The notes under the pieces are model-generated. The model was not told the DNA's origin, searched no databases, and saw nothing but the letters and a program-made list of their open reading frames with translations. This document shows positions 1,638-62,629 of a DNA stretch of 64,000 nucleotides, in pieces. A program made the position numbers and the translations under genes. Source of the DNA: Patescibacteria group bacterium (GTDB lineage: Bacteria; Patescibacteriota; Patescibacteriia; JBAZBY01); NCBI GenBank assembly GCA_041671225.1, contig JBAZBY010000001.1, positions 174,940 to 238,939 on the forward strand, written 5' to 3'. The stretch's first letter is position 1, and each line of letters starts with the position of its first letter.

Positions 1638-1654
1638 TGGTGAAGAAACGGGCG

Positions 1655-10194: not shown

Positions 10195-10199
10195 AAAAT

Positions 10200-10235: not shown

Positions 10236-10301
10236 GGGGAACACCGCGGGCTTTCCGCGGAATTCATTGCGGGCTGGCCAGTGACGGCCAAGGGACAAGA
10301 A

Positions 10302-10889
10302 TCACATCTGGCACGTGGTGTCCGCGTCCTCCGCCCAGCCGAACCACGTCGTTCCCCTGTCGTCCTCAATGGGGATGAGCTCGGGGAATGCCTCTTCCTG
10401 AGGTCTGGGGATGATGAGGCTATCCACAACCGGAACGCTAAAGTACGTTCTAGTGGCGCGGTCGAGAAGAGTGACCCTCCTCATGTTGAGGCCCTGAGCA
10501 ACCTCAATGACCTGAAACGGCCTCTTGGGCAGGAGGATCCAGAACACCTCCCTTTCCCCATTTGCGTCGTGGTCATGGCAGAGCATGGGACGCTCCACAT
10601 CCCACGGTCGAACGCAAACGAGCGAATCAGGGATAACCGACGAGTGCATCTCCTCGCCCAGAGCCAGGTGGTACGTCCCACTTGGGACGCCATGCTCCCT
10701 GAACTCCTGGATGATGACGTAGTCCTCCCCGAACGGAAGTTCGCTCCCGGGCCGGCTGGGCCCGAACGAGCTCTGCCCGTCCATGATGGAACCACCCCGA
10801 GGATTGAAGGCCTGCGCCCCGATGAGGCACAGGACGATGGCCACGAGAGACAAGGTGCCTACGTGCGACTGCAAACGTGACTTTCTCAA
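10302..10889 (-). CDS. Hypothetical secreted protein (195 aa, high-GC)
   Basis: N-terminal signal peptide (LSLVAIVLCLIGAQA); no recognisable domain. The GC-rich codon composition contrasts with uvrC and secG. Confidence 0.55.
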   Translation of the reverse strand: MRKSRLQSHVGTLSLVAIVLCLIGAQAFNPRGGSIMDGQSSFGPSRPGSELPFGEDYVIIQEFREHGVPSGTYHLALGEEMHSSVIPDSLVCVRPWDVERPMLCHDHDANGEREVFWILLPKRPFQVIEVAQGLNMRRVTLLDRATRTYFSVPVVDSLIIPRPQEEAFPELIPIEDDRGTTWFGWAEDADTTCQM

Positions 10890-10977
10890 AGGTACTCCCT
10901 CCGTTTACCGTATGCCCTCCATGAGACAAACGGTCGCAACAAGCTACCGCAAAATCGCCCTTTTGTCAAGTCTTGTG

Positions 10978-16423: not shown

Positions 16424-17215
16424 TTACACTCTCTCGCTGCTCGCCTCTTCAAAATTCACCTTCTGCCCCAAAAACCGCGCGGCGGTTTCTTTTGCGTGTG
16501 GTGTGATATCTGAAAGGAAGAAACGTGACGCACCTTTGCACTTCTGCGCATGTTCCGGGTGCGCTTTGAAATGCTCCGCAACAACACGCGCAGTCTCAAC
16601 GGCTGGATCAACGAGCTGCACGCGCTTGCCTGCCTTCTGTTGAATCACATCATGCAATAATGGGTAATGCGTGCAACCGAGAATCATGGTATCCACTTGC
16701 TCCTGTTGAAAGGGTAATAAATACTTCTTCACAATCTGCTTGGTCTCTGGCTTGCCCGCCCAGCCTTCTTCAACGAGAGAAACCAAAAGCGGTGTTGCTT
16801 TTGTCTGCACAAAAAGCTTCTTATCTTCTTGCTTTAAAAGGCGCTCATAAATTCCGCTTCCAATGGTCGTACGCGTACCAATCACGCCGATTTTTTTGTT
16901 CTGCGATGTTGCGGCTGCCGCGTGAATCACTGGCGTGATCACGTCAAAGATGGGCACAGCAGGAAATTCCTTCTTTAAGGCATCCACCGCGATAGACGAA
17001 GCAGTATTACAACCAATCACAATCACTGTGGCACCATGCTCCAACAAAAAATGCGTGTTTTCGATTGCATACCGCGTCACTGTCTCTGCACTTTTGTCGC
17101 CGTATGGGTATCGCGCTGTATCGCCAAAATACACAATGCCAAAATCCGGCAATTCACGCATCAACTGCTTCACCACGGTGAACCCCCCAATGCCTGAATC
17201 AAAGACGCCGATCAT
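16424..17215 (-). CDS. murI: Glutamate racemase
   Basis: MIGVFDSGIGGFTV...GCTHYPLL are the typical MurI motifs. ATGA overlap with pgm indicates translational coupling. Confidence 0.93.
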   Translation of the reverse strand: MIGVFDSGIGGFTVVKQLMRELPDFGIVYFGDTARYPYGDKSAETVTRYAIENTHFLLEHGATVIVIGCNTASSIAVDALKKEFPAVPIFDVITPVIHAAAATSQNKKIGVIGTRTTIGSGIYERLLKQEDKKLFVQTKATPLLVSLVEEGWAGKPETKQIVKKYLLPFQQEQVDTMILGCTHYPLLHDVIQQKAGKRVQLVDPAVETARVVAEHFKAHPEHAQKCKGASRFFLSDITPHAKETAARFLGQKVNFEEASSERV

Positions 17216-18999: not shown

Positions 19000-19661
19000 T
19001 ATACGTACCCCTTTCTCATTGCTTCCTGCTTCACGCGCAACACTGCGCCTGCGGCCCAGAGCACAAAGAAAATCTTCACGAGAAGCGTGAGGCCAAGAAC
19101 AACAGCATGCACGTTGCCAGTAAAAAAATCCGGGAGCCAATCAAGGGTAACAACCCAAAGCGTCCCGCCAATGACGAGTTGCCAGAACTGCGGAATATTC
19201 TTATTGGGAAGAAGACGCTCATTGAGTGCGCGGCCGACCCACAATGCTGCAAAAACCAGTGAACTGAGCAACAGCATCCCCCATGCGGCACCGAGAAACA
19301 ATGCCAATGGAATGCCAATGAATGTCAGGCCAATCGCAACCAAACCAAAGGGTGCCAGGAAGACGCCAAGAAGCCCCCAAGAAAAATTGCGGAGCACGTC
19401 AGTATCCATTGCTGCGATTGTTTTCTGTGAAAAACCGGACGTGAAGAAAAAGAGCACTGCACCAAGCGCAAACAACCCAAAGAGTTCAATCACCCGTTCC
19501 AGCCAAATACCAGAAACCGTTTCGCTGAATAGGCGGTCAAAATCTTGTAAGCTTGCATCAACTCCGCCGTCAAAAAGACTATCAGGGAGAGACGCGCCCG
19601 CTGGAGTTGCGATAGAAAAGGTTAGTATTACTGCGAAAATGAAGATAGTGAGTGCCTTCAT
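18999..19661 (-). CDS. Hypothetical integral membrane protein (signal peptide plus ~4 TM), first gene of the membrane protein-pgm-murI operon
   Basis: Start MKALTIFIFAV at 19661 with GGAG SD and an upstream TTGAAA-16-TATACT promoter; strongly hydrophobic segments. Confidence 0.6.
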   Translation of the reverse strand: MKALTIFIFAVILTFSIATPAGASLPDSLFDGGVDASLQDFDRLFSETVSGIWLERVIELFGLFALGAVLFFFTSGFSQKTIAAMDTDVLRNFSWGLLGVFLAPFGLVAIGLTFIGIPLALFLGAAWGMLLLSSLVFAALWVGRALNERLLPNKNIPQFWQLVIGGTLWVVTLDWLPDFFTGNVHAVVLGLTLLVKIFFVLWAAGAVLRVKQEAMRKGYV

Positions 19662-19731
19662 ACGCTCCAGTATACCCGAGAAATCCCTTTTTTCAAAGGT
19701 GAAAAGCGCGTGGTACACTAAGGAGCGCCTT

Positions 19732-20577
19732 ATGACATTTCTTGCAACTGCAACGCCGCCTGAGGTTCTCTTAACCCTCGGCGGGCTCACTATTCATTGG
19801 TATGCCTTCTGGATCACCCTCGGTGCGATTGCTGGTTTTTTGCTCCTCAAAAATCGTGCACGTGTGGCCGGCATCACAAACGAACAAACACTTGATATCA
19901 CACTCCTCGTCCTCATCTTTGGATTCATTGGTGCACGACTGTATCATGTATTCAATGAACCAATATACTATCTTGAACATCTCAGCGAAATTCCGGCCAT
20001 ATGGAACGGCGGCATGGCCATCCACGGCGGCATACTTGCCGGCGCGGTCGCGCTGTGGTGGTATGCACGCAAAAAAGGCCATGCCCTGAACCCGACGAGC
20101 TCCGTGAGGAGTGGTGCGGGGTTGTCATTCCTCTCACTCCTTGATACCGTAGCTCCAGCATTACTCCTCGGCCAGGCCATCGGCCGCTGGGGAAATTACT
20201 TCAACCAGGAACTTTTTGGTGGCCCCACTGAACTCCCGTGGAAGCTTTTCATCGCCGCGGAACATCGACCCGAGGGCTATGAAAACACATTGTTCTTTCA
20301 CCCAACATTTCTCTATGAATCACTTGGCCTGTTCGTGATTGCTGCTGCGCTTCTCTTCTTCTGGAAGCGCTTCCGTGCACCTGGCATGATGGCCTTCAGT
20401 GCGCTGGCGGCATCGCAAATTCTCCGTTTTGGCACAGAAACGCTCCGCATCGACCGAACGCCTGAGATTCTTGGGGCACGGCTACCGCTGCTCATGAGCA
20501 TCATCCTCTTCATTGTTTCACTTATCGCGCTATTATACATTCATCGCCATGCAACACCTTCAACAAACAGATCCTGA
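19732..20577 (+). CDS. lgt: Prolipoprotein diacylglyceryl transferase
   Basis: Lgt signature GRWGNYFNQELFG and multiple TM segments. AAGGAG SD lies 7 nt before the ATG at 19732. The upstream part of track ORF 19087-20577 is antisense to the neighbouring operon and rejected. Confidence 0.9.
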   Translation: MTFLATATPPEVLLTLGGLTIHWYAFWITLGAIAGFLLLKNRARVAGITNEQTLDITLLVLIFGFIGARLYHVFNEPIYYLEHLSEIPAIWNGGMAIHGGILAGAVALWWYARKKGHALNPTSSVRSGAGLSFLSLLDTVAPALLLGQAIGRWGNYFNQELFGGPTELPWKLFIAAEHRPEGYENTLFFHPTFLYESLGLFVIAAALLFFWKRFRAPGMMAFSALAASQILRFGTETLRIDRTPEILGARLPLLMSIILFIVSLIALLYIHRHATPSTNRS

Positions 20578-40284: not shown

Positions 40285-43200
40285 CTACGGCGCAAAATGC
40301 CCCATGGTGATAGAAAGACCGCCACGAAAACTTGGCGCATACGCATAATAAGAAAGAATGCGTTGCAGTGTTGTCTCATTTTTCTTCACAAACACAAACA
40401 CGCCAGGTGCGCCATCTTTATACGTGCTGGTGAGTATTTCTGCCGTGTTATCAAAGCCATAAAGATCCCCTGCGGTAACGTTCGCGCCACCACGGAATCC
40501 CTCAGATGCGGCAAAGAAATTGCGTAAAAAAGTTCCTGTGGGGCTAAAGATCTTTACTTCTGCCGGGTAACCGCCTGTCGTGGGGCTCAAAATAATCTCT
40601 GGAATACCATCATCACCTATAATGTCTCCTGTAGTGATGGACATACCGCCGCGTCGTGTGGATGAATACGCAAAGAACTGCGCAGAAACACGTGCACCAG
40701 AACGAGAAAGGGTAAACACGCGTATGTGAGGGCCGCCACGATCCGCAGGCGCGACCACCACGGAATCACGTCCATCGTTATCAAAGTCTGCTGTAGTGAG
40801 ATTCACGCCACCTCGAAAACCCTCATCATACGCCCAAAACTGGGCTTCCAACTTTCCGCGTCCATTAAACACCCGCACAACCGGTCCCCCGCCACTTGCG
40901 GGCGTCACAAGAATTTCATCCTTGCCATCACCATCCACATCACCTGTTGCAACGTTCACTCCGCCACGAAAAGTTTCTGGAAGCGCGAAGAATTGACCGA
41001 GCACAACGCCGCGTCTATTAAAAATGCGAATATGAGGACCGCCGCCGCGTCCCGGTGCAGTAATAATCTCATCATAGCCGTCACCATCCACATCACCTGT
41101 TGCAACGCTTACTCCGCCACGGAAGTTTGGATTGTATGCAAAGAACTGACCCGTGAGATTCCCAAGATAATCAAAGATGCGGACATGAGGGCCGCCACCA
41201 GCTCCGGCGCCAGCAACAACCTGTAATACTTTTTTCATGGTGAATGTTGTTGTTGCGGGAACAGGGTCGTCATTGCCAGCCTCATCAACAGCGCTCACGG
41301 CAAATGTATGTTCTCCGTTCGTAAGATCAGAAAAAATATGCTCCGTACGATTTGTATACAGCGTCCAGTTCCCATCATCAATCTTATAACGAAAACGAAT
41401 ATCCTTCTTGGCGGTGATATCATCGTTTCCTGACCATTGCATCACAACATTCCCTGTATAAAAAATGGAGACGTGTGAAGCGATGGCTGTATCCGGCGGA
41501 TTGGGATCCTCAGGCCCTCCAACGGGATCCGCATTGATTTTTGGTGGCGGCACGCTATCGCACTGGCGCGCAATGAGTGATGACGGCGGGTTCACGTCAC
41601 AAGATTTTGTGTCTGTACAAGTACGTATCTGTTCATTATTGAGACATTCAGACCAGTCGCCACAATTCCATTTTGGCGAACAAGAAATTTGTGGTGGAGT
41701 ACAAACCTGTGCAAGCGCAGGCCGATTCATGATGGTCCCGCAATCATGAGCATCGGTGCAGGTGCGGGACTGCACTCCTGCAGTACTACACGTGCTCCAT
41801 GTGCCACAACCCCAATCTTCCACGCATACCGTTGGCACGTCTGGCGCCACGGGGATCAACACTGCCGCCTCATTATTCTCAAGTGCAATGCTGGTAAGAA
41901 TCGTACTATCCAATATTCCGTCCGCGCCCAAACGGCGATACTCCCCGCCAAGATCGTGAGTGGTACGCGAAGCAACTCCAAGATAACCCCCATATTCCCG
42001 ATACTTCACCAGTACCAATGCATTGGAATATTGCCGAGCAAAAAGATGATAATTTCTTGTGGTGCCGCTGGTAATCTGACTTGGCGTGCTGGGATCAATG
42101 CCCGTTGCAAGTTCAAAGTGTTCTATGGTACCGCTATTGCCAAAGACATCCTGCTTCCCGAACGTATTGGCGATCGGCGTTCCGATGTCATAATCGATCG
42201 CTGGGATCCAAAGATAATCCTCAACCGGCCCTGTCGGCCAAAAATTCCCATCCTTGTTCCATCCCGTAAAATCGAGATAGGCAAAGGAGAGGTTCTTGTT
42301 GTTCACAAGATAAAAGTTCGCGAGAACGAACATCTGCGCCTTTGATGTGTTGACGGTAGATTCATTGACCCCTTTCAGATAGAACTTCTGCCCGGCAAGT
42401 GAATCACTCAACATCTTCTTGGTGTCTTGATAATCCGAATTATACGTCAGCGCGCGCGGAACGCCGCCGCTCGGCTGGTTCAAGTCATTCCATGTGAGCC
42501 ATGCTTCAATTTCAACCGGGTTGTTCAGGCTCTGATACCCGGCATAAAAATATGGATGAAAATACCAGTAGAGTGCGCGGGCATTCGGGATGACCTGCTT
42601 TTCTTTTCCAAAATAATTCGAGACGTACGTTGCCATGTTCCGCTGCGCATCGAATGCCTCCTGAATGCGGGGGTGATTGCCATCCAATGGAATGCCGTAA
42701 TACTCGACTGATTTGTCGAACGCCGAACCGCCCGGATAAAAATCCCCGTTGTCTGAAAGCACATTATCCGCCTCTGCGCCGCCAGACTCCATTGTGGTCG
42801 CAACTGCCTCATTGTTAAATGCGACCCAGTTCTGATTGCTGAATTTCACGTCTGACCATATCAATAACCAAGCATTCGGCGCTCTGGATTCTGCGCGGCT
42901 TGCTGCCGTTGCGGCAGGCGTACAGTTCGGTGAACACGATGCATTCCACCCCTTAAATGACTGACAGTTCCTAAAGTAATCGCATCGCGTACCGACATCA
43001 TCACGAAAATGAATGATCAGATCCTGCGGATCACATGCCGGCGACTGCGCCGCACACCAACTCGTGACACTCCCTGCAAATTCGCTATCGGTAAATGCGC
43101 TATAATTCCGATAATTTCCCAGCGTCACCTGGGGATTCAAAGCCTTATATGCCGCCTTGAATGCAGTGTGAGAAAATACTTGGTCAAAATGAAGTGCTTT

Positions 43201-43653
43201 GAATGTGGTATCAACAAGCCCCGCATCATCATACCGAAGGTCATGCGTGTGTGTTTTGATATGCGGACGGAGCGTACAGGAACCATCGCCCCATACATAA
43301 TACCCCGTAGGGCAGCCGCAGGAAGCACTGTCTTTGATAAGTATTCCATCTTCGCAATACCACGGACGATCTGCGGAATCGCCGGTGCGTTGCACAACGC
43401 ATTGCCCATGAGCGGTACCATCACTGCACCCGACCGTTGCCGCTGCAAATGATGCCCCAAGTTCATCAACACTCAGCCCATCTGGCTGCAAATCAATAAT
43501 TCCAGCAACAGAAAAAAGTGCTCCAAAAAATACAATAAAAAGAAGCACTCCCGTCGAAATCTGAACACCAAAACCAAGCCGCGCGGCAGTACTGGTCTGC
43601 TGCGCAATCCCGATGTGTACCTGTAATCTCTTATGTAGTGACTTTTTGATCAT
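40285..43653 (-). CDS. Giant cell-surface protein: N-terminal membrane anchor, Cys-rich tandem module (WxCGxWSxC...RTCTD), C-terminal FG-GAP/VCBS beta-propeller repeats
   Basis: 1122 aa; six ~50-aa repeats of the form GGGPHIRIF...FRGGVNVATGDVDGDGKDEI at the C-terminus; hydrophobic N-terminal segment. Confidence 0.8.
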   Translation of the reverse strand: MIKKSLHKRLQVHIGIAQQTSTAARLGFGVQISTGVLLFIVFFGALFSVAGIIDLQPDGLSVDELGASFAAATVGCSDGTAHGQCVVQRTGDSADRPWYCEDGILIKDSASCGCPTGYYVWGDGSCTLRPHIKTHTHDLRYDDAGLVDTTFKALHFDQVFSHTAFKAAYKALNPQVTLGNYRNYSAFTDSEFAGSVTSWCAAQSPACDPQDLIIHFRDDVGTRCDYFRNCQSFKGWNASCSPNCTPAATAASRAESRAPNAWLLIWSDVKFSNQNWVAFNNEAVATTMESGGAEADNVLSDNGDFYPGGSAFDKSVEYYGIPLDGNHPRIQEAFDAQRNMATYVSNYFGKEKQVIPNARALYWYFHPYFYAGYQSLNNPVEIEAWLTWNDLNQPSGGVPRALTYNSDYQDTKKMLSDSLAGQKFYLKGVNESTVNTSKAQMFVLANFYLVNNKNLSFAYLDFTGWNKDGNFWPTGPVEDYLWIPAIDYDIGTPIANTFGKQDVFGNSGTIEHFELATGIDPSTPSQITSGTTRNYHLFARQYSNALVLVKYREYGGYLGVASRTTHDLGGEYRRLGADGILDSTILTSIALENNEAAVLIPVAPDVPTVCVEDWGCGTWSTCSTAGVQSRTCTDAHDCGTIMNRPALAQVCTPPQISCSPKWNCGDWSECLNNEQIRTCTDTKSCDVNPPSSLIARQCDSVPPPKINADPVGGPEDPNPPDTAIASHVSIFYTGNVVMQWSGNDDITAKKDIRFRYKIDDGNWTLYTNRTEHIFSDLTNGEHTFAVSAVDEAGNDDPVPATTTFTMKKVLQVVAGAGAGGGPHVRIFDYLGNLTGQFFAYNPNFRGGVSVATGDVDGDGYDEIITAPGRGGGPHIRIFNRRGVVLGQFFALPETFRGGVNVATGDVDGDGKDEILVTPASGGGPVVRVFNGRGKLEAQFWAYDEGFRGGVNLTTADFDNDGRDSVVVAPADRGGPHIRVFTLSRSGARVSAQFFAYSSTRRGGMSITTGDIIGDDGIPEIILSPTTGGYPAEVKIFSPTGTFLRNFFAASEGFRGGANVTAGDLYGFDNTAEILTSTYKDGAPGVFVFVKKNETTLQRILSYYAYAPSFRGGLSITMGHFAP
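40300..41250 (-). repeat. Intragenic tandem DNA repeats (~150 nt units) encoding the FG-GAP blades
   Basis: Recurring ...ccgccacg... and gatgg/ggtgatgg blocks at ~150-nt spacing in the sequence. Confidence 0.55.
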
Positions 43654-46600: not shown

Positions 46601-46675
46601 TGGTGTCCCCAAGAGGAGTCGAACCTCTGTCTTAGCCTCCGGAGGGCTACGCTCTATCCACTGAGCTATGGGGAC
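46601..46675 (-). tRNA. tRNA-Arg (anticodon CCG)
   Basis: Hand-folded cloverleaf: acceptor GTCCCCA/TGGGGAC, D-arm GCTC-AGTGGATA-GAGC, anticodon stem TAGCC/GGCTA with loop CTCCGGA, T-arm AGAGG-TTCGACT-CCTCT, CCA encoded. Confidence 0.85.
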
Positions 46676-47435
46676 GCACCTTGTTGTCTCCATTCTGCAC
46701 GAACTCACGGGCAGTATTCATGTCATCAGGATTCGAAAGATGAAGGCACGGTTCTGCAAGCTCCATAACCTTCACTTTCTTTTTTCCTGCAAGTATAGTA
46801 ATGGCATCCGTAAGCTCGTATTCTCCGCGCTCGGATTCTTTTACCTGTTTGATTGTATCAAAAATTTCGGGGAGAAAACGATATAAACTCATATTCGCCA
46901 AATTCCCCGGAGGATTTTCTGATTTTTCCGCTATCTCCTGCAGCATATTGTTCTCTCCAAGAACCGCAATACCAAAATCCTTCGGGTGATCACTTGAAAT
47001 GACACTCATAACATGTAACTCCTCATCAAAGTGTCGTATGCGCTGAAGATCAGATAAAGAATAGAGCTGGTCGCCTGCAAGTGCGATGAACGTCTCTCCT
47101 TTGGTTGCTGCTTCTGCCGCAAGAATTGCCATTGCCGTTCCATAATGATTCTCTGGTGTCACTGCATACTGATTAACCGTCTGTACCTCCAGCCCTGACG
47201 GTGTCTGCTGCAGCACGACATCAAACTGCTCGCGCATGTGTCCCGTTACTACCACCACGCGAGTGAATCCTGCGGCTGCAAGTCGTTCAAGTGCATACAG
47301 TAAAAAGGGCCTCCCTTCAACAGGGAGAAGTGGCTTTGGTGTTGTTGCCGTGAGCTCCTTCATCCGCGTGCCTCGTCCCGCAGCCATAATGACTGCGGTA
47401 TCCACGGGAACGCCCTGCGTATTGTGCTGTTCCAT
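46647..47435 (-). CDS. Sugar-phosphate nucleotidyltransferase (NTP_transferase family)
   Basis: N-terminal VIMAAGRGTRM motif; the 3' end of the CDS overlaps the 5' 29 nt of tRNA-Arg. Confidence 0.8.
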   Translation of the reverse strand: MEQHNTQGVPVDTAVIMAAGRGTRMKELTATTPKPLLPVEGRPFLLYALERLAAAGFTRVVVVTGHMREQFDVVLQQTPSGLEVQTVNQYAVTPENHYGTAMAILAAEAATKGETFIALAGDQLYSLSDLQRIRHFDEELHVMSVISSDHPKDFGIAVLGENNMLQEIAEKSENPPGNLANMSLYRFLPEIFDTIKQVKESERGEYELTDAITILAGKKKVKVMELAEPCLHLSNPDDMNTAREFVQNGDNKVRPHSSVDRA

Positions 47436-48491: not shown

Positions 48492-49051
48492 GCAAGTTGT
48501 CGCAACGCTTCACGAATCTGCTCTGTGGTGTCTGCAACTTCATCAGGGACCTTGGCGAGTGCTTCGCGCGCTTCCTGTGCCCGGTACCCCAAGCCGATCA
48601 ATGCTTCAAATGCGTCCGTGCGTTCCGGCGTCAAACTTTGTGCAAGTTCTTTGCCGCCGAACTTCTCCTTGAGTTCAACGATAATCCGCTCCGCAGTCTT
48701 CTTCCCGATGCCAGAAACTTTTGTGAGCATGCCTGTATCCGCAGAACGAACGGATTTTTGGATATCCTGCGCAGATGCCAATGACAGAATGCCAAGCGCC
48801 GTTTTTGGGCCAACGCCGCTCACGGTAATTAATGCAAGAAAAATTTCGCGTTCAAAAAGAGAAGCAAAGCCATAAAGCTCCATCGCGTTCTCACGGAGAT
48901 GCGTATGCACAAAAAGGGCAATTGCTGCGCCTTTCCTCTTTCCCTGCTTCACGCGGGCACTCACTGCGAGTTCATAGCCAACGCCCTGCACATTCAGAAT
49001 AAGAGTGCGTTCGGTAACTTCCTGCAGTGTGCCTTCAAGATAGCCAATCAT
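48488..49051 (-). CDS. ruvA: Holliday junction DNA helicase RuvA
   Basis: MIGYLEGTL..GVGYEL N-terminal OB domain and HhH motifs (GVGPKTAL, GIGKKTAERI). Confidence 0.93.
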   Translation of the reverse strand: MIGYLEGTLQEVTERTLILNVQGVGYELAVSARVKQGKRKGAAIALFVHTHLRENAMELYGFASLFEREIFLALITVSGVGPKTALGILSLASAQDIQKSVRSADTGMLTKVSGIGKKTAERIIVELKEKFGGKELAQSLTPERTDAFEALIGLGYRAQEAREALAKVPDEVADTTEQIREALRQLA

Positions 49052-49089
49052 CGTGCCTCCACCCTACCAATGTCAGAGAAAATTGAAAA

Positions 49090-49120
49090 GGCCTGCCCCC
49101 ATTCTCCAGGTGGGGGTAGG
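49090..49120 (-). terminator. Terminator of the high-GC operon (11-bp stem with one G-U, followed by CTTTTCAATTTTC on the minus strand)
   Basis: Hairpin GCCTGCCCCCA..TGGGGGTAGGC downstream of the cupin gene. Confidence 0.55.
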
Positions 49121-49155
49121 CCTCGCTTGGCAAGATGATGCGCTATACCACGCAT

Positions 49156-49575
49156 CTAGATTCGACCGAAGTCATCTTCGAAACGAACGACGTCGGCGAG
49201 CTGGGGCGTTGAAACCTCCAGCAAGATAGCGACGCCATCTCGCGCATGGACGCGGTGCACCGTTCCCGGCGCCAGAATGAACACATCGTCCTTGTAAAGA
49301 GTCATCTCCGTGAGTTCCTCCGGAGAGGGCCCCACGAAAACCTGCACGGGACCATTCAGCACCACCCAGGCCTCCTCCTTCTCGTCGTGGCGCTGAAGAG
49401 AAAACCGTGCTCCTCGGTTGATGACGAGGGTCTTGAGGGCGAATCCCTGTCCGAACACGATCCATTCCTCGCGACCCCAAGGCTTGATCACCCGGACGGT
49501 CTCCACTCGCCCAGTGAACCCCTCCGGAACCTGCAGCGCCATCGGATTGAACTGACCATCACGAACGACCCTCAT
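49156..49575 (-). CDS. Cupin-domain protein (mannose-6-phosphate isomerase type II-like cupin_2), high-GC
   Basis: PWGREEW...SLQRHDEKEEAWVVLNG...GTVHRV cupin motifs. Start at MRVVRDG with AAGGAAGGAGGG SD. Confidence 0.7.
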   Translation of the reverse strand: MRVVRDGQFNPMALQVPEGFTGRVETVRVIKPWGREEWIVFGQGFALKTLVINRGARFSLQRHDEKEEAWVVLNGPVQVFVGPSPEELTEMTLYKDDVFILAPGTVHRVHARDGVAILLEVSTPQLADVVRFEDDFGRI

Positions 49576-49764
49576 ACCGCGTACCCTCCTTCCTTGTGTT
49601 TGCGGTGCGCCCCACTTTACCAAAAAGAAGATTTTCGTCAATGGAAAATCCGACAGCACTCCTCCCTATGTACTGTTGGATTCGAGGGGGATGCCCCCTG
49701 TTGTACGAATGGACGGACGGACGACTCTTGATACGATCCGGTAGAGGGGGCATGGCAGCGGCTC

Positions 49765-50178
49765 CTAAAAGCCTGACCGCTCGCCGATATCGGCCGGCGA
49801 CTTCATGGGGGACCCCGGCGAATCAAGTCCCGCGAGCTCCGGAACGTCGCGACAACTCTCTCGTTGTTCAAACAGATCCGCAAGCTCAAGAGAGGCGAGC
49901 AACATCGAGATCTTGGTCCCGATGATCCACACTACCCGAGGCGCGGGATTGCGTTTTTCGAGCTCGTCCATCAACGCGCCCATGCCGTCCACGATGCTAT
50001 GGGTGGCAACCCGCAGGCCGCTCAGGTCGACGATGACGAGAGTGGCCTCCAGAGCAATGACCCCAGTCGCTCCGGACAGAACGGCGCTATCGCGAGAGGT
50101 GATACATATCCCTTCAGCCGTCACAAGATGGCCGCTCTGGCCTTCTCCGTAACCGAAGGGTTGGTGTTTCAGCTTCAT
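49765..50178 (-). CDS. STAS-domain protein (anti-sigma-factor antagonist-like) 1, high-GC
   Basis: LVIVDLSGLRVATHSIVDGMGALMDEL...VVWIIGTKISMLLASLELADLFE has SpoIIAA-like topology. AAGGAG SD at 5 nt. Confidence 0.65.
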   Translation of the reverse strand: MKLKHQPFGYGEGQSGHLVTAEGICITSRDSAVLSGATGVIALEATLVIVDLSGLRVATHSIVDGMGALMDELEKRNPAPRVVWIIGTKISMLLASLELADLFEQRESCRDVPELAGLDSPGSPMKSPADIGERSGF

Positions 50179-50221
50179 GAATGCTCCTTCTTGTACGACG
50201 AGTACCACGCCTCAAACAAAG

Positions 50222-50602
50222 TCACGCATCGCACTCTCCCGTACGCTGCTCACGCGACTGCCACGTGAGGGCGACCGCCTCGTCCTCAACAATCTCGAAG
50301 ACCTCGTCGAGGCCGAGAGTATGCAGCATGTGCATGAACCGACGCGATACACCGCAGAAGATGAGTGGCGTGTTCCGGTTCATGCAGTGCGCGTGGAGTG
50401 TGACGAGCTTGCCGACGAAGATCGAGTTGATAAGTGTGAGCTCGGCACAGTCCACGATGACGCGGTTCACGTCCCGTGTCACGTCCTTCACGCTACATAC
50501 GAAGTCCTCGTGATCGCCATCGGACACAAAGGGTCCGAAAAGCTGCACAACGCGTGCGTGGACCCCGCCCGGTATGGGAAGGGTTCTGACGATGATGGTC
50601 AT
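50222..50602 (-). CDS. STAS-domain protein (anti-sigma-factor antagonist-like) 2, high-GC
   Basis: VIVDCAELTLINSIFVGKLVTLHAHCMNRNTPLIFCGVSRRFMHMLHTLGLDEVFEI; GGAGG SD at 6 nt. Confidence 0.65.
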   Translation of the reverse strand: MTIIVRTLPIPGGVHARVVQLFGPFVSDGDHEDFVCSVKDVTRDVNRVIVDCAELTLINSIFVGKLVTLHAHCMNRNTPLIFCGVSRRFMHMLHTLGLDEVFEIVEDEAVALTWQSREQRTGECDA

Positions 50603-50669
50603 CGCAAACCTCCATGATCCCTTGCGGAATCGATGAGTGGCACGTTCCGCCCTTTGGATTTCAAAGAGC

Positions 50670-50703
50670 CAATCACCGTAACGTAAAGACTGGTGATTGT
50701 CAA
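50670..50703 (-). promoter_or_regulatory. Putative promoter/operator of the STAS-STAS-cupin operon: palindrome CAATCACC-N14-GGTGATTG overlapping a TTGACA -35
   Basis: Perfect 8-bp inverted repeat at 50670-50677 and 50692-50699; minus-strand TTGACA at 50698-50703. Confidence 0.4.
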
Positions 50704-50782
50704 CGCGTTGTGCACTTTATGATGAAGCACTTGCCGGCCACGCATAAGTCCGCGAGGGACGAAGGCGAATCAATGAAAAGAG

Positions 50783-50811
50783 GGGGCCGTCCGGCTTTGC
50801 CGGACGGCCCC
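50783..50811 (-). terminator. Rho-independent terminator of the lipoprotein gene (13-bp GC stem plus CTCTTTTCATT)
   Basis: GGGGCCGTCCGGC-ttt-GCCGGACGGCCCC followed on the minus strand by a U-rich tract. Confidence 0.7.
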
Positions 50812-50823
50812 ACACAGCATCAC

Positions 50824-51456
50824 CTACTCCGCAACGCAGAGAAAGAGCTGTTGCGCTTCACGGGCAATCGCCCGCGTAGTCTCCTCCTCGCTCGAATGCA
50901 GGAAGATACGCGGCGTCACGAACGTAAGCGGCGAACTGGTCACAAGAGCAAGGCAAGAGAAACGCCCGCCGTCTGCGAGCAGATCCATAGGCAGCGCATT
51001 CACGGGTATCGTTGCGCGGTGATCGCGCGTTTGCCCGCCTTCGTAGTACGCCGCGATCCGGCGGTCGCCTTCGCCAAGGTCATACGCAAAGAACCAGCCC
51101 TCGTATGTTGCAAGCGTTTCCGCTCGTGAGCGCGAGAACCATGTGGTCTCTGCAAACCCCAGAACCGTCGCCGTCTTGAGTGCCCCGTTCCGGAACAGGG
51201 CAACGAGCATGCGAATCTCGTCCTCCGCTTCCACGGGAATCAGCAACGCTTCCGTGCCGTCACCATACGCCACGTGCCATGCGCGGTCGTACTCTACCAA
51301 TCCCAGATTCTCGGAAAGTGGAAGCTGCCTCACGTCCGAGAGCAACGCGTGCTCGGCTCCCACAACAGAAGCCTCCAACAACATAGACTCCGGCGCAACA
51401 ATATCCTCGGCGCATCCGCACATCACGAATACGCACGCCAGCATCAGCAGTTTCAT
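50824..51456 (-). CDS. Hypothetical lipoprotein (high-GC)
   Basis: MKLLMLACVFVMCGC lipobox signal. GGAGG SD 8 nt upstream of the ATG at 51456; no recognisable domain. Confidence 0.6.
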   Translation of the reverse strand: MKLLMLACVFVMCGCAEDIVAPESMLLEASVVGAEHALLSDVRQLPLSENLGLVEYDRAWHVAYGDGTEALLIPVEAEDEIRMLVALFRNGALKTATVLGFAETTWFSRSRAETLATYEGWFFAYDLGEGDRRIAAYYEGGQTRDHRATIPVNALPMDLLADGGRFSCLALVTSSPLTFVTPRIFLHSSEEETTRAIAREAQQLFLCVAE

Positions 51457-51686
51457 CGTCTTTTCCTCCATACGAAAAAAAGCCCGCGCCACTGCACGAG
51501 CCACCAGAATTAAAAAAGGGCGGTACTTCCGCCACTGCACACAGGATACTCCGGAACGAAAAATGTGTCAAAAAAATGGAAACCCGAGAACAACCCTCTC
51601 TCTGTATTGAGATCAACAGTCGGGAAAACTCATTTCTTCATTCTTCTCTACTCCCAACAACCTACAACCTACCACCTATTTCCTGC

Positions 51687-51692
51687 TACAAT
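51687..51692 (+). promoter_or_regulatory. uvrB -10 element TACAAT abutting the start codon (leaderless-type); upstream C/A-rich direct repeats ACAACCTAC x2
   Basis: TACAAT lies 2 nt before ATG 51695 and 8 nt before ATG 51701. There is no SD. Confidence 0.35.
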
Positions 51693-51694
51693 GA

Positions 51695-53725
51695 ATGAAT
51701 ATGGATTTCAAACTACACGCCGACTTCAAACCAACAGGTGACCAACCGCAGGCAATCCGCGGTTTGATTAATGGTGTAAAAAAGGGGGCGCGCGACCAAA
51801 CGCTTCTCGGTGTGACCGGCTCAGGAAAAACCTTCACCATGGCGAACGTCATTGCAGAACTACAGCGTCCCACACTTATCATCTCCCACAACAAGACCCT
51901 CGCCGCGCAGCTTGCGAGCGAATTCCGGGAATTCTTCCCCAAAAGCGCCGTACACTACTTTGTCTCATACTACGACTACTACCAACCAGAAGCGTACGTC
52001 GCACGCAGTGACACCTTCATTGAAAAAGAAACGGACATCAATGAAGAGATCGAGCGTCTGCGCCATGCGGCAACACAGGCACTGCTGACGCGCAAAGATG
52101 TCATCATCGTTGCCTCTGTCTCCTGCATTTATGGTTTGGGTTCGCCAGCAAAGTATGGTGCACAACGGCTCACACTGCATGCGGGCCAGCGCGTTTCCCT
52201 GCGCGATGTGTTGAAGGACCTCACGCAAATACAATTCACACGCAATGACATTGATTTCACTCGCGGTTCCTTCCGCGTGAAAGGCGATGTACTCGATATC
52301 TTCCCGACCTTCGCGGACGAAGAAGTAATCCGCGTTGAATTCTACGGAGATGAAATCGACACCATCAGCACCATCAACGCCATCACGGGAAAAACCGTGC
52401 GTAAAGAAAAAGACGTGCAGGTCTTTCCCGCTTCGCTTTATATTGCAGAACAGAATGACATCCCAGACATGGTGAAAACGATCCGCAAGGAAATGGCCGC
52501 GCGCGTTGCCTGGTTCAAAAAAGCGGGCAAACTCATTGAGGCGCAACGCATTGAGGAACGCGTGAACTTTGATACGGAAATGCTCCTAGCAACAGGCTTC
52601 ACCTCTGGCATTGAGAACTATTCGCGATACATGGATGGCCGCAAGCCAGGCGAAGCATCATACACGCTCATTAATTACTTCCAAGAAGCGGCAAAGGCAG
52701 CAACGGGTAACCCAAAAGATTTTCTCCTCTTTATTGATGAATCACACATGACCGTTCCGCAAATTGGTGCGATGCATGAGGGGGACAAAAGCCGTAAAGT
52801 AACTCTTGTAGATTATGGATTCCGCCTGCCCTCTGCGCTTGATAATCGTCCGCTGACCTTCAAAGAATTTCGCGAGCGCACCGGCCAGACGATCTATGTC
52901 TCGGCCACGCCGGGTCCATATGAAAAAAAAGTCTCCACAAAGACCGTGCAGCAACTCATTCGTCCTACGGGTCTTCTGGACCCCTCTATTGAGGTGAAGC
53001 CAACGGAACATCAGGTTGATGACTTAGTCGAACAGATTCAGGCGCGGCTCAAAAAGAAACAACGCGTGCTCGTCACCACACTCACAAAAAAGATGTCCGA
53101 GGATTTATCTGAATACATCGCCAATCTTGGAATCAAGGTCACATATCTTCATTCTGATATTGACACGCTTGATCGCATCGACATTTTGCGTGACCTGCGG
53201 CTTGGGAAGGTCGATGTTCTCATTGGCATCAACCTCCTGCGCGAGGGGCTCGACCTGCCGGAGGTTTCCCTTGTTGCGATCCTTGATGCCGATAAAGAAG
53301 GCTTCCTCCGTTCTGAGACGTCACTCGTGCAAACAATCGGTCGCGTGGCGCGCCATAGAGAAGGTCATGCTATTCTCTATGCAGACCGAATCACCGGAAG
53401 TATGAAACGCGCAATCGATGAGACAGAACGCCGGAGGGCATCACAACAAGCATATAATGATCAACACGGTATCACTCCCGCATCGATCAAGAAGGCAGTA
53501 CGCGATGACCGCTTTGCCGGCAAAAAACATGAAGAAGCGGATGTGCTGCTTCCGAAGATAAAAGACATACCTCCGGAAGAACTCCCGCATATCACACATC
53601 AACTGGAAGAAAAAATGGAACTTGCCGCACAGAACCTGGATTTTGAAGAAGCCGCCAGATTGCGCGATCTTATCGCAAAACTTTCTCCAAAAAAAACCAT
53701 ACGCAGTAAACGAGGCAAGCGATGA
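51695..53725 (+). CDS. uvrB: Excinuclease ABC subunit B
   Basis: FKPTGDQPQAIRGL, GVTGSGKTFTMANVI helicase motif I and C-terminal UVR domain (EEAARLRDLI). Translation may actually start at ATG 51701. Confidence 0.96.
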   Translation: MNMDFKLHADFKPTGDQPQAIRGLINGVKKGARDQTLLGVTGSGKTFTMANVIAELQRPTLIISHNKTLAAQLASEFREFFPKSAVHYFVSYYDYYQPEAYVARSDTFIEKETDINEEIERLRHAATQALLTRKDVIIVASVSCIYGLGSPAKYGAQRLTLHAGQRVSLRDVLKDLTQIQFTRNDIDFTRGSFRVKGDVLDIFPTFADEEVIRVEFYGDEIDTISTINAITGKTVRKEKDVQVFPASLYIAEQNDIPDMVKTIRKEMAARVAWFKKAGKLIEAQRIEERVNFDTEMLLATGFTSGIENYSRYMDGRKPGEASYTLINYFQEAAKAATGNPKDFLLFIDESHMTVPQIGAMHEGDKSRKVTLVDYGFRLPSALDNRPLTFKEFRERTGQTIYVSATPGPYEKKVSTKTVQQLIRPTGLLDPSIEVKPTEHQVDDLVEQIQARLKKKQRVLVTTLTKKMSEDLSEYIANLGIKVTYLHSDIDTLDRIDILRDLRLGKVDVLIGINLLREGLDLPEVSLVAILDADKEGFLRSETSLVQTIGRVARHREGHAILYADRITGSMKRAIDETERRRASQQAYNDQHGITPASIKKAVRDDRFAGKKHEEADVLLPKIKDIPPEELPHITHQLEEKMELAAQNLDFEEAARLRDLIAKLSPKKTIRSKRGKR

Positions 53726-54185: not shown

Positions 54186-55607
54186 CTAGCGGCGCTCTGC
54201 CGCAACCAGGTCGTCGTACATGCGCTGCCCGGCAGGCGTCGGATACCGGCCGGTGATGCAGCCTTCGCAGAAGCTTCTCGGATTCACACCGAGCTTCTTC
54301 AGCACGGCACGCTGCATTGCGACAGTTCCGTAGAACACGTCGTTCACGCCAAGATCTCGTGCCATCGCAGCCGTATCCACATGAACGCCCTGTTTGAGAT
54401 ATCGTCGTGCAGCGAGCTTGTCAAAGCTCTTGAGATCGATGCCGTAGTAGCAGGAGCCGATGACCGGCGGATAACCGAACACCAGACTCAAACCCGAAGG
54501 CACACCGTCTCTCTTGAGCATGGCCACAAGCTCCCTCATGGTCAGGCCGCGTACCTTGGAGTCATCCACGATGGTGGCATGCTTCCCGCGCATCCGCATC
54601 CTGCTGACCGCGTACTTCTCGCCTGCACTGCGCTTGCGGCGCCCGACGGACGTGATGAACGTTCTGCCGGTATGCATGCGCCGGATGCCGAACACAACAG
54701 GCACACCCAGCCCCTCTGCCACCCCTTCCGCAAGCGGAATGGATGAGTCGGGTACTGGGACGACCATCTCTGTGGCATACCCCTGCAATGCAAGCATGCT
54801 ACCGATGCGCTCACCAAGGTAGAACCGAAACTCCTCCACGGAAACACCGAAGATTGTGGAAGAGACTCCGGCGAAGTAGTGGAGTTCAAACCCACACTGT
54901 GCAAGACGCACTGCCGGCTTCCCTGCAACCGTCAAGGCACCGCGGTCAGAAAGCTCCACGATCTCACCGGGACCGATCTCGCGCATGGTGTGAACGCCGA
55001 TCTTCTCCAGAGCCCAGCTCTCACTGGCAACGGCATAGAAGACCTTTGCGTCTTCTCCGATGCCTTCACCCACCCATAGCGGACGGAAGCCGAACCGATC
55101 CCGGAACGCAAACAACCGCTTGCCGTCCATGATGATGGCAGAACAAGCGCCGTCATACGTCTCCAGGAATCGTTCAATGGCTCGCACCGGGAGCGACCCT
55201 TCGTTGGTACCGACGATGTGTTTGAGAATGGCCTCTGCTTCCGTACTGGAACGCCGGTACGGCACCCCTTCCTGCAGTTCCGCGAGTGACGGCGTATCAC
55301 CGTTCTCAACGATCCACAGTCGGCGGCCGGGACGATCCGCATACGTCGGCTGCGCATCTTCATTGCCGTTGCCGCCGCTCGTCTGGTACCGTCCGTGCGC
55401 AATACAGCAGAACCCTTCCAGTTTCCGAACCACCTCGGGGTGATCCAGTGGCAAGCGCCCTTCTCCCTCGATGTAGGGATAGGTCCGGATGCCATTCCAC
55501 ACAACGGCTCCACGCGTATCGTCGCCTCGATTGCGGACCGCGCGCAGGGCGCGGATCGCAAGCCTCGCGGCCTCCACATGGCCCTGAACGCCAACGATTC
55601 CGCACAT
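54186..55607 (-). CDS. purF: Amidophosphoribosyltransferase (class II glutamine amidotransferase plus PRTase), high-GC
   Basis: Starts MCGIVGV (N-terminal nucleophile Cys) and has the PRTase motif HATIVDDSKVRGLTM. Promoter TTGACG plus a GAGAAAGGAAAG SD sit in an AT-rich leader. Confidence 0.85.
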   Translation of the reverse strand: MCGIVGVQGHVEAARLAIRALRAVRNRGDDTRGAVVWNGIRTYPYIEGEGRLPLDHPEVVRKLEGFCCIAHGRYQTSGGNGNEDAQPTYADRPGRRLWIVENGDTPSLAELQEGVPYRRSSTEAEAILKHIVGTNEGSLPVRAIERFLETYDGACSAIIMDGKRLFAFRDRFGFRPLWVGEGIGEDAKVFYAVASESWALEKIGVHTMREIGPGEIVELSDRGALTVAGKPAVRLAQCGFELHYFAGVSSTIFGVSVEEFRFYLGERIGSMLALQGYATEMVVPVPDSSIPLAEGVAEGLGVPVVFGIRRMHTGRTFITSVGRRKRSAGEKYAVSRMRMRGKHATIVDDSKVRGLTMRELVAMLKRDGVPSGLSLVFGYPPVIGSCYYGIDLKSFDKLAARRYLKQGVHVDTAAMARDLGVNDVFYGTVAMQRAVLKKLGVNPRSFCEGCITGRYPTPAGQRMYDDLVAAERR

Positions 55608-55770
55608 AGGCGTGCTTTCCTTTCTCCGCAAACGCGGAAATCCCCTGGACCGTATTGTCCAAAGAGCAACGCTCTCCCCACGATTGAGGAGTGCTTTACC
55701 TTATCACTCAGGTACCGGCAGCGTCAAAGTCTTGCGTGGATTTAAAGCTTGTGGTACCGTCTGTTTTGCT

Positions 55771-60532: not shown

Positions 60533-62629
60533 CTATGCGGAGATGTTGCGCGCTCCGCGGCGGTGCAGCACAAAAAAGACGCCGCCGATGGCGAGCATGA
60601 GCGCGGAAAGCACCAATGCGAGCATGGTCGTTGGTTTAATGGTAAAGGGCTCCTCTGCATGGAGTTCTGTTGTCGTTGCGGCAACGGGTGCCGTCTCAGC
60701 AGGAGACGCCTCATCAGTTGCGGCAAGCACCGCGCCCTTCTGCTCTACGATGTCATCAATGCTGCGCGGAAGAAATTCGTCGTCCAGAAAGAATCCGGTC
60801 ACGGTGATGCCATCCCCGACAAGAAGCGACGCGAGATCGATCCCCGTGCCGCTCTTCACGCGCACGGCAATTGGCCCGGCATCTGTGGCGAGCGTCATGA
60901 GCGTCCGCTGCTTCTTCTCCACCGTACCGCTCACGGTCTCCACGACAGACTCAGACGCCACTGCGTCACTCACCTCAACGCCGCCATCCCGCCCGAGATT
61001 CACCTTCACGCCACTCTGGTCCATGCCGATGACGCCGCGAACGGTCACCACATCATCAAGCGCAAGCTCCGGGAAACGATCCGTGCTGGAGTACACGCGC
61101 ACCAATGCATCGCCCTCGGCAATGTACAGCGTGTGGCTTGCGATCTGGCCCGGCAAAGCAATCACCACGCCAGAAACGGCGACCTTCTCGTTACGGTCCA
61201 GAGATGCAAGGTCAGCAATGCGGCGTGAGGCAAAGCCGTCAGTCTCCGGCGTGATGGCAGCATCCTCCGTTTCCGCATCGATTTTCTCAGACTCCTCATT
61301 TTCTTCGCCGCTCCATTGCCAATGCGTGGATGCTCCATCGCGGAGAAATATCTGATCCTCCGGGGCCGTGCCGAACTCCACGCCGTTCACCTTCTTCCCG
61401 AAGGGATCAATGAGATGGACAACATCCCCGGTATTGTTGAGCATGATGCGGCTCTCTGTGCGCATGATGCGCAGCGTTGCGCCGGACTTCAGCGGGGTAC
61501 TTGCTGCGAGCGTGAACGTCCTACTTCCATCACTCACGGACCATCCATAAAGGTCCACGGTCTTTGCGGCGAAATTCGTTATCTCAACATACTCGCCGGC
61601 AGTATCATCCCCCGGCGGATTCGGAAGCACGGCCGTCAACAGAACATGCGCTGACGTCATCGGTTCTTGGTTTTGGGATTGGGGTGCGGAGTCTTTTGGT
61701 GTTTTGTCGCTTGGTGAGGTATTCGTATTGCTGTTCGTGTTATCAGGCGGAGTTTCGCCGGACGGCGTCTCTCCATCATCTTGCGTAACCGGCGCATTGT
61801 TTTGCACAAAAACCTGAAGCGTCTGCGTTGCAGATGCGCGACCATCACTCACGGTGCAGGAAAGCAAAAATTCGCCTTCTCGTGCGAAGGTCCGTACAAA
61901 CGTTGCTCCGGTGCCGGATGCAGAACCATCCACACTCCAGGAAATAGCCAGCACATCGTTATCCGCATCTGTGGCTTCTGCAGTAAAAGTTGCTGATGTG
62001 CCGACGATCACCTCATCCGGACCCACGCACGCCACATCCGGCGCTTGGTTGGAATTCTCTACCTTTGGCGTTGCAAAAAACCCTTCCACGTCCGCATTGG
62101 CGCTTGCTGTATGCCATGCCTCCGCCGTATCCCCCGGCAGGTCAACGCGATGCCTCTCCATGGATGCCCAATTGCTTCCGCTTGCATACTCACCGGCGAA
62201 CGGAATGCCGATGCCTTCATCCGCAACATCCACCACTGCTCCACCCGCATCGTATAAGTGAAGCAGGAGCTTGGAATTTACGAGCGAGACGGCAGGATCC
62301 ACCACATCCGGCTCCACCATAAGCGCGCTGTTTGCATCCCCGTTCGCATAATTCGCGATAAGGAAGAAGCCGTGCGCCGGAATGGTCTTTCCCGGCAATA
62401 CGAGCATCTCCGTCTCCACGTCGTTGGAGAGCTTGGTGATGCGCCAACCGGAAAGATCGATGTCACTGTCCGTTGTATTGAGGAGCTCTATCCATTCATC
62501 CTGCGCGCTCGCAGGTGAACCCATCCACAGGAGTTCATTGATAATGACGTGAGAAGTTGTTGCCTGCGCAGGCAAAATCCAGACCAATAAAAACACCATC
62601 GCCACGAGAACAAGAATACGTACGTACAT
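60533..62629 (-). CDS. Cell-surface protein with two lamin-tail domains (LTD), a PKD-like domain and a C-terminal TM anchor
   Basis: LTD motifs HVIINELLWMGS..EWIELLNTTDSDIDLSGWRI and VLLTAVLPNP..EYVEITNF..VDLYGWSVSDG; PKD-like VACVGPDEVIVGTSATFTAEATD; C-terminal hydrophobic helix plus HRRGAR. Confidence 0.8.
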   Translation of the reverse strand: MYVRILVLVAMVFLLVWILPAQATTSHVIINELLWMGSPASAQDEWIELLNTTDSDIDLSGWRITKLSNDVETEMLVLPGKTIPAHGFFLIANYANGDANSALMVEPDVVDPAVSLVNSKLLLHLYDAGGAVVDVADEGIGIPFAGEYASGSNWASMERHRVDLPGDTAEAWHTASANADVEGFFATPKVENSNQAPDVACVGPDEVIVGTSATFTAEATDADNDVLAISWSVDGSASGTGATFVRTFAREGEFLLSCTVSDGRASATQTLQVFVQNNAPVTQDDGETPSGETPPDNTNSNTNTSPSDKTPKDSAPQSQNQEPMTSAHVLLTAVLPNPPGDDTAGEYVEITNFAAKTVDLYGWSVSDGSRTFTLAASTPLKSGATLRIMRTESRIMLNNTGDVVHLIDPFGKKVNGVEFGTAPEDQIFLRDGASTHWQWSGEENEESEKIDAETEDAAITPETDGFASRRIADLASLDRNEKVAVSGVVIALPGQIASHTLYIAEGDALVRVYSSTDRFPELALDDVVTVRGVIGMDQSGVKVNLGRDGGVEVSDAVASESVVETVSGTVEKKQRTLMTLATDAGPIAVRVKSGTGIDLASLLVGDGITVTGFFLDDEFLPRSIDDIVEQKGAVLAATDEASPAETAPVAATTTELHAEEPFTIKPTTMLALVLSALMLAIGGVFFVLHRRGARNISA

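Follow-up and report, generated by a model that had tools for sequence, protein, structure and literature searches.

The locus between uvrB and ruvA

The 64,000-nt window of Patescibacteria DNA analysed here includes, at 49090-51560, four minus-strand genes that encode a predicted lipoprotein, two proteins designated STAS1 and STAS2, and a stand-alone cupin. An earlier note on this DNA had described them as one high-GC unit, in which two paralogous STAS proteins are co-transcribed with the cupin in a partner-switching-like module that lacks a kinase, a phosphatase and a sigma factor. The evidence does not support one novel signalling cassette. The interval most likely consists of three adjacent but separate transcription units, namely the lipoprotein gene, a STAS1-STAS2 bicistron and the cupin gene, and the STAS pair are very divergent STAS-domain-only proteins with unusual evolutionary plasticity.

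In the direction of transcription, the lipoprotein gene (50824-51456, minus strand, 210 aa) was assigned from its open reading frame (ORF) and sequence, with a signal peptide and the lipobox VMCGC, and is followed by an intrinsic terminator at 50783-50811 (minus strand) that has a 13-bp stem with 12 GC pairs and a T-run. A spacer of 221 nt separates the lipoprotein gene from STAS1 (50222-50602, minus strand), which encodes a single-domain STAS protein of 126 aa with a serine at position 60. STAS2 (49765-50178, minus strand, 137 aa) begins after a gap of 43 nt and has its own Shine-Dalgarno site, and a further 189 nt lie between STAS2 and the cupin gene (49156-49575, minus strand, 139 aa). On the 3' side of the cupin gene, before ruvA, a second intrinsic terminator (49088-49124, minus strand) comprises a hairpin with a folding energy of -23.4 kcal/mol and a T-run behind it. 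Beyond it lie ruvA, a FemAB-family gene and a nucleotidyltransferase (NTP-transferase) gene in that order, and uvrB is divergent and upstream of the lipoprotein gene; the interval is thus flanked by the DNA-repair genes uvrB and ruvA. The inventory of the earlier note was therefore sound, as a lipoprotein, one bona fide STAS protein, a PMI (phosphomannose isomerase)-like cupin and bounding terminators, both of which fold strongly, were all found, together with a sigma-70-type promoter that lies downstream of the lipoprotein gene and ahead of STAS1. A 64-aa ORF at 49559-49753, proposed by an automatic gene caller, was rejected, its reading frame not being conserved.

The description of the unit as high-GC also holds. 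The GC content of 49090-51560 is 0.584, compared with 0.519 for the window, and is the highest among all stretches of equal size. The lipoprotein, STAS1, STAS2 and cupin genes each have a GC content of 0.59-0.60, and those for RuvA and UvrB have 0.51 and 0.50, respectively. An amidophosphoribosyltransferase-like gene with GATase and PRTase domains (54186-55631, minus strand) has a GC content of 0.604, matching that of the STAS island. As this gene is equally GC-rich, high GC by itself is no marker of foreign DNA here.

Related loci

Three related loci were found, L002 through P0003, the relative of STAS2 described below, L082 through a cupin 72% identical to that of the window, and L086 through a RuvA with 78% identity in a second metagenome scan. 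The relatives come from the runs SRR22387818, SRR22388171, SRR6484324 and Ga0180007. The window has the order lipoprotein, STAS1, STAS2, cupin and RuvA. L082 encodes UvrB, a lipoprotein (82% identical), a 333-aa protein with three STAS-like domains, the cupin and RuvA (86%). L002 has a lipoprotein (52% identity, C-terminal part), STAS1 (32%, with a 1-nt frameshift), STAS2 (43%) and RuvA (72%), and L086 has two STAS genes, A and B, the products of which both score over the Pfam cut-off, followed by an unrelated 82-aa ORF and RuvA; neither of these two loci includes a cupin gene. The 82-aa ORF of L086 (934-1182) has no detectable homology and lies between the STAS genes and ruvA, where the window has the cupin gene.

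The triple-STAS fusion of L082 (6309-7310) replaces STAS1 and STAS2, and its C-terminal domain alone still matches Pfam, with no Pfam match for the N and M domains. In L002, STAS1 is split at ~680-700 and, with the frameshift repaired, matches the Pfam STAS family at 41 bits; the frameshift could reflect a real pseudogene or an assembly error. The STAS1-type domain is encoded by the first STAS gene in the window, forms the last domain of the fusion in L082 and is encoded by the second gene in L086, and STAS2 occurs only in the window and L002 among the four loci. STAS identity is 25-43%, as compared with 72-87% for the flanks, and the domain architecture changes between close relatives. Between the window and L082, the cupin is 72% identical but the STAS proteins only ~35%. 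The locus thereby documents unusually fast STAS evolution between well-conserved repair genes. In every locus long enough to show both, the STAS genes are downstream of the lipoprotein gene. As judged from the sequences of the four loci, what is conserved is that at least two STAS domains are encoded upstream of ruvA, with the cupin dispensable.

The nearest RuvA sequences among 185,579 species-representative genomes are 47-49% identical, and the lineage is not represented there. The neighbourhoods of those ruvA genes include no homologues of the STAS or lipoprotein genes, bar an unrelated locus in Verrucomicrobia (L030), where three STAS-like ORFs unrelated in sequence (~9284-10964) presumably belong to a conventional partner-switching cluster. 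The context search also agreed with the view that the STAS-STAS-cupin triad is uncommon, STAS2 having one relative among 1.84 billion cluster representatives. In this ~1-Mb Patescibacteria genome, an NCBI MAG with the proteins on a contig of 1,028,488 bp, the interval is a GC-rich insert that separates uvrB from ruvA and is specific to one lineage, a very narrow clade.

STAS1

STAS1 matches the Pfam STAS family (PF01740) with 33.2 bits, above the cut-off of 22.6, and its orthologues score 41, 39.5 and 26.7 bits. It aligns to Geobacillus SpoIIAA (1th8_B) and, along its length, to SpoIIAA and TM1442, and a profile built from the STAS domains of the lineage matches the PDB antagonists 4hyl (4e-8) and TM1442 (5e-7). 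In the alignment with SpoIIAA, TM1442 and 4hyl, Ser60 of STAS1 falls on the phosphorylated Ser58 of SpoIIAA at the start of helix 2. This phospho-acceptor column is occupied by Ser or Thr in all four STAS1-type sequences (S, S and T in the other three) at only 25-35% identity, and by N or C in the STAS domains of the second type in the lineage. A Cys near the end of helix 2 is common to six lineage STAS domains. The score against the NCBIfam antagonist model TIGR00377 is 24.7 bits, below its cut-off of 53.45, and a word-index homology search with STAS1 returned only STAS1 itself.

On this evidence STAS1 is a predicted STAS-domain-only protein of the SpoIIAA/RsbV type. The retention of Ser/Thr in the STAS1 type argues for the existence of a serine kinase and of a phosphatase and, as the residue is kept at the phospho-acceptor position in the orthologues, suggests that the kinase is encoded elsewhere in the ~1.03-Mb genome. 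An MlaB-like function was considered and rejected, since the PDB similarity is weak (E ~0.2) and there is no adjacent ABC transporter gene.

STAS2

STAS2, annotated in NCBI as WCV86_01135, is a near-orphan with a probably disordered C-terminal tail. It has no match in Pfam, NCBIfam (TIGR00377 included) or the PDB sequences, and a plain hmmsearch with the STAS profile does not pick it up. A word-index homology search returned only STAS2 itself, and an exhaustive phmmer search of the 1.84 billion cluster representatives yielded the single relative P0003, with 43% identity. In BLASTP, STAS2 matches STAS1 with an E value of 0.008 over 64 residues. When aligned by hhalign to the lineage and PDB STAS profiles, it gives a probability of 35-51% (E ~2-4e-4, score 29-30), as compared with scores of 11 ± 2 (maximum 19) for 100 column shuffles and 10-15 for the reversed sequence. 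This profile-profile alignment is in register and spans almost the full domain. The residue at the phospho-acceptor column is neither Ser nor Thr in STAS2 or its orthologue, but an invariant His (His60 in STAS2), and the two orthologues have the long invariant motifs FGYGEG, VDGM and LAD.F in common.

STAS2 is therefore described here as a probable, though unproven, highly diverged STAS-like protein. Of the two paralogous STAS proteins originally called, STAS1 scores above the Pfam cut-off and stands, and the call for STAS2 depends on a weak profile-profile similarity. No STAS-like ORF beyond STAS1 and STAS2 was found among the ORFs of the window.

Transcription of the lipoprotein and STAS genes

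The true start of the lipoprotein gene is the ATG at 51456, with a GGAGGA Shine-Dalgarno sequence 5' of it, and the N-terminus of the protein is MKLLMLACVFVMCGC, which by eye we take to fit the lipobox pattern. The lipobox is seen as VLCGC in the L082 lipoprotein, and an Lgt gene lies in the window at 19087-20577, so that both marks of a bacterial lipoprotein, a signal peptide with a lipobox Cys and Lgt, are present. No known domain was found in the protein with Pfam, NCBIfam or PADLOC, and metagenomes scanned with an alignment of the lipoproteins gave no match. The terminator at 50783-50811 has an energy of -31.4 kcal/mol (z -5.9) and is kept in L082 and L002, with changes in the loop and, in L002, one compensatory substitution in the stem. 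The lipoprotein gene is a transcription unit of its own.

Between a promoter-like site at 51543-51571 and the lipoprotein start codon, two terminator-like hairpins with T-runs are present at 51481-51533 (minus strand). They have the direct repeat GTGCAGTGGCG in common, one copy of which is found in L082, and the pair could be a leader/attenuator or a duplicated element.

Conservation of the regulatory sequences was assessed by alignment of the lipoprotein-STAS spacers of the window, L082 and L002, the latter two being the relatives that cover the promoter. As read from the window sequence, the sigma-70-type promoter of the STAS operon (50675-50703, minus strand) consists of a -35 element TTGACA (50698-50703), a 17-nt spacer and a -10 element TACGGT (50675-50680). 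L082 and L002 have an identical -35 TTGACA, and their -10 element is TAnGGT or TAGGTT at the constant spacing of 17 nt. Directly 3' of the -10 element, 22 of 24 nt of GCTCTTTGAAATCCAAAGGGC (50649-50669) are kept even in L002. The same positions form the hairpin GCTCTTTG-AAATC-CAAAGGGC (minus strand), with which the STAS mRNA would begin, its transcription start being predicted near 50668. The hairpin is nearly invariant in the window, L082 (~6255-6275) and L002 (~360-382), whereas the surrounding spacer is much less conserved. It folds into a stem of 8-10 bp with -10 to -14 kcal/mol (z -3.3 to -4.6), and the lone substitution in the stem retains a G.U pair. The conserved -35 and -10 elements and 5' hairpin, together with the conserved terminator upstream, indicate that the STAS genes form a separate transcription unit.

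A palindrome overlapping this promoter had been proposed as an operator. The perfect repeat CAATCACC-N14-GGTGATTG is indeed present at 50670-50699 (strand-neutral) and spans the -35 and -10 elements, but its arms are not conserved, with only 4 of 8 positions still complementary in L082 and 2 of 8 in L002. Perfect 8-nt inverted repeats with a spacer of 4-20 nt occur 42 times in the window, from which ~0.06-0.15 would be expected in a 221-nt spacer. The palindrome is probably fortuitous and not a conserved operator. The better regulatory candidate is the 5' hairpin, which may be an mRNA 5' stabiliser or an operator.

The cupin

Membership of the cupin in the type II PMI C-terminal family (PF01050) is indicated by a score of 44.3 bits against a cut-off of 23.6. 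The model for the bifunctional GMP/PMI equivalog, TIGR01479, is matched in its C-terminal region only, and the score falls far below the cut-off because the C-terminal domain alone is present. The cupin has every residue that is invariant in its stand-alone family. The AF2 model (pLDDT 83) is a cupin barrel, and its Foldseek matches include the CapF cupin, KdgF and PMI cupins of Thermococcus such as 7zvy (TM 0.65-0.83). The canonical HxH motif has presumably been replaced by H-D-E. In its PF01050 match, fold, invariant residues and the gene clusters of its homologues, the protein resembles the type II PMI cupins, which are known as the C-terminal domain of GMP/PMI enzymes such as ManC/AlgA and as stand-alone archaeal PMIs; it differs in being a stand-alone protein of only 139 aa. 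The assignment as a PMI-like cupin is thus borne out by both the PF01050 match and the modelled fold. An N-terminal extension starting from a GTG codon was rejected, as it is not conserved in L082.

A promoter scan identified a promoter-like sequence, TTGACG-N16-TAAAGT, at 49614-49641 (minus strand), upstream of the cupin gene, and L082 has TTGACG-N16-TAGAGT. This site is overlapped by a conserved element of ~30 nt, AGGAGGAGTGCTG..GGATTT.CCATT (49636-49667; 49614-49667 with the promoter-like site, minus strand), which persists in the cupin-less L002 (~1290-1320). Its survival there suggests that the cupin gene is ancestral and was deleted in L002. The conservation of the element is above expectation, and in L002 it may be a mere remnant of the cupin promoter region. 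No terminator is present between STAS2 and the cupin gene, and a hairpin equivalent to the terminator at 49088-49124 is present in L082. The promoter-like site suggests that the cupin gene can be transcribed on its own and, being conserved in L082, speaks against the earlier proposal that the cupin and STAS genes are co-transcribed.

Distant cupin homologues from bacteria and archaea are encoded in clusters of NTP_transferase, cupin and phosphomannomutase (PGM/PMM) genes, without STAS genes; such clusters are the split form of a GDP-mannose-type pathway. The window has a nucleotidyltransferase gene at 46647-47435, 1.7 kb downstream of the cupin gene and on the same strand, and a PGM/PMM-family gene at 17212-19140. 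Given the NTP-transferase and PMM company of the homologues and the presence of such genes in the window, the cupin is best explained as a sugar-phosphate isomerase. By this prediction it probably serves in nucleotide-sugar or envelope-glycan synthesis and stands outside the signalling module, and it is an ordinary sugar-metabolism neighbour of the STAS genes.

Comparison with known STAS systems

As far as partners are concerned, no Pfam match to a kinase (HATPase_c-type), a PP2C/SpoIIE phosphatase or a sigma domain was obtained among the ORFs scanned across the 64-kb window, in keeping with the statement of the earlier note that none of the three is encoded nearby. No HATPase_c-type match was found in L002, L082 or L086 either. 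However, a kinase-less window does not show a kinase-less module, as the scan spans 64 kb of a 1.03-Mb genome.

STAS1 resembles SpoIIAA and RsbV in being small and cytoplasmic, in matching the Pfam STAS family and in having Ser at the phospho-acceptor position. It differs from them in that no GHKL kinase/anti-sigma factor, PP2C phosphatase or sigma factor is encoded adjacently, in the motif NSIF in place of DSSG, in belonging to an extremely narrow and fast-evolving family, and in being paired with a second STAS-like protein that would not be phosphorylatable. The stressosome combines two different STAS proteins, RsbR and RsbS, with the RsbT kinase, the RsbX phosphatase and an N-terminal sensor domain in large assemblies. 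Like RsbR and RsbS, STAS1 and STAS2 are two different STAS proteins encoded side by side that presumably cooperate; unlike them, they come without RsbT, RsbX or an N-terminal sensor domain.

The STAS-only proteins SypA, BtrV, RbaV and HmpV have kinase or phosphatase partners that have been described or proposed, and their targets are non-sigma or not known (PMC8256260). In Anabaena, a STAS domain directly controls the glycosyltransferase All4160, and Alr3423, one of two candidate kinases, was genetically shown to regulate it (PMC13555669). Several of these non-canonical systems (SypA/SypE, BtrV/BtrW/BtrU, RbaV, HmpV and All4160-HenR) control polysaccharide or surface functions (PMC8256260, PMC13555669). 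The window locus is similar in that the target of a STAS protein need not be a sigma factor and that its neighbours include envelope and sugar-nucleotide genes, but kinase and phosphatase partners have been described or proposed for the published examples and none is visible in the window. In the DNA-damage-responsive CapK/CapS system, CapS comprises a STAS domain and a C-terminal winged helix-turn-helix, and CapK has the architecture helix-turn-helix (HTH)-STAS-GHKL (PMC13373217). The window locus recalls it in having a STAS protein at a palindrome-bearing promoter and in lying between DNA-repair genes. Regulation of the CapK/CapS type was nonetheless rejected, as STAS1 and STAS2 lack an HTH or winged HTH, no CapK-like gene or GHKL domain is present, and the palindrome is not conserved. 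A search of the literature for STAS proteins in Patescibacteria yielded no paper.

Possible roles of the STAS pair

About an even chance is given to the reading in which STAS1 has a partner-switching-type role with partners encoded elsewhere, and STAS2 is its non-phosphorylatable companion or decoy. The conserved sigma-70-type promoter would drive a bicistronic STAS1-STAS2 mRNA that opens with the conserved hairpin. STAS1 would act as a phosphorylation-controlled partner-switching antagonist, with genes in other parts of the genome supplying its serine kinase, phosphatase and target. As a diverged paralogue in which His is predicted to bar phosphorylation at the canonical position, STAS2 would pair with STAS1 or with the same target, or serve as a decoy for either. 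The cupin would work with the nucleotidyltransferase encoded at 46647-47435 and the PMM-family protein encoded at 17212-19140 in the synthesis of sugar nucleotides or envelope glycans.

Several observations count against this assignment. The DSSG motif is degenerate in STAS1, and STAS2 fails every sequence-to-profile test and has an unreliable structure model. The fast divergence of the STAS genes and the one frameshifted copy could mean relaxed constraint instead of a working switch. Further, the cupin is adjacent in two of the four loci and its promoter element is left in a third, so that a functional link to the STAS genes keeps some probability. No partner gene is detectable in 64 kb, and partners elsewhere are thus an assumption.

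Among the alternatives, a kinase-independent STAS1-STAS2 hetero-oligomer that senses a ligand or redox state, with a target possibly tied to the lipoprotein and to cell-surface or host-interaction functions, is unlikely but retains some support. Wherever a locus extends over both, the lipoprotein is accompanied by at least two STAS domains, the three-STAS fusion in L082 implies joint working, the Cys that six STAS domains of the lineage have close to the end of helix 2 is reminiscent of redox-regulated antagonists, and rapid divergence, it may be argued, is common in host-interaction genes. If it were true that the STAS pair needs no kinase or phosphatase, the locus would represent a minimal form of partner switching, in a genome that is among the smallest of any bacterium, and offer a handle on signalling in uncultured Patescibacteria. 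However, the lipoprotein is extracytoplasmic and a strong conserved terminator precedes the STAS genes, the conservation of Ser/Thr in the STAS1 type favours phosphorylation, and the searches with PADLOC models and for viral relatives were negative.

It is rather improbable that STAS1, STAS2 and the cupin act as one cassette without a kinase, phosphatase or sigma factor, in which the cupin would be bound or controlled by the STAS proteins or would have a small-molecule ligand in common with them. The genes are adjacent in the window and similar in GC content, the order STAS then cupin recurs in L082, the element kept in L002 suggests ancestral adjacency, the gap between STAS2 and the cupin gene has no terminator, and polysaccharide enzymes can be under the direct control of STAS domains (PMC13555669). 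Against this, the cupin is absent from L086 and also from L002, which has an intact STAS2, it has its own conserved promoter-like site, the identities of 72% and ~35% point to very different constraints on the cupin and the STAS proteins, and the distant homologues of the cupin occur in NTP-transferase and PGM/PMM contexts without STAS genes. The comparison of related loci thus dissolves a cassette that was plausible from the raw sequence into separate units.

The same low probability is assigned to decay or functional relaxation of the STAS genes, which would then be the fast-drifting, partly pseudogenised leftovers that a reduced genome has kept of an ancestral partner-switching module, with no current signalling partners. 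Decay would account for the gap between STAS and flank identities, the frameshift in L002, the different domain architecture at each locus, the loss of a Pfam match by STAS2 and by the N and M domains of the L082 fusion, and the lack of partners in the window. It is at odds with intact reading frames in three of the four loci, good Shine-Dalgarno sites, a promoter and 5' hairpin better conserved than the surrounding DNA, a Ser/Thr phospho-acceptor in all STAS1-type copies, and the invariant motifs common to the STAS2 orthologues. Least probable of all is that the locus holds an architecture-recombining, fast-evolving multi-STAS module of a narrow Patescibacteria clade that would function as a kinase- and phosphatase-free STAS-STAS switch, sensing a ligand or redox state and acting on envelope or sugar-nucleotide enzymes or a lipoprotein pathway in episymbiotic life.

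Other features of the window

An Rfam search over 48900-51800 gave no meaningful match, PADLOC defence models had zero matches, and a scan of viral contigs found no relative. The remaining genes of the window are housekeeping genes, including uvrABC, recA, rpoBC, ftsK, polA, a Mur-ligase gene, lgt and genes for ribosomal proteins. Five ORFs at 2-4338 and three at 61316-62518 have no Pfam match at E <= 0.001. A gene at 40285-43653 (minus strand), adjoining the Mur-ligase gene, encodes a 1122-aa protein that has faint FG-GAP repeat signals only and is probably a surface protein.

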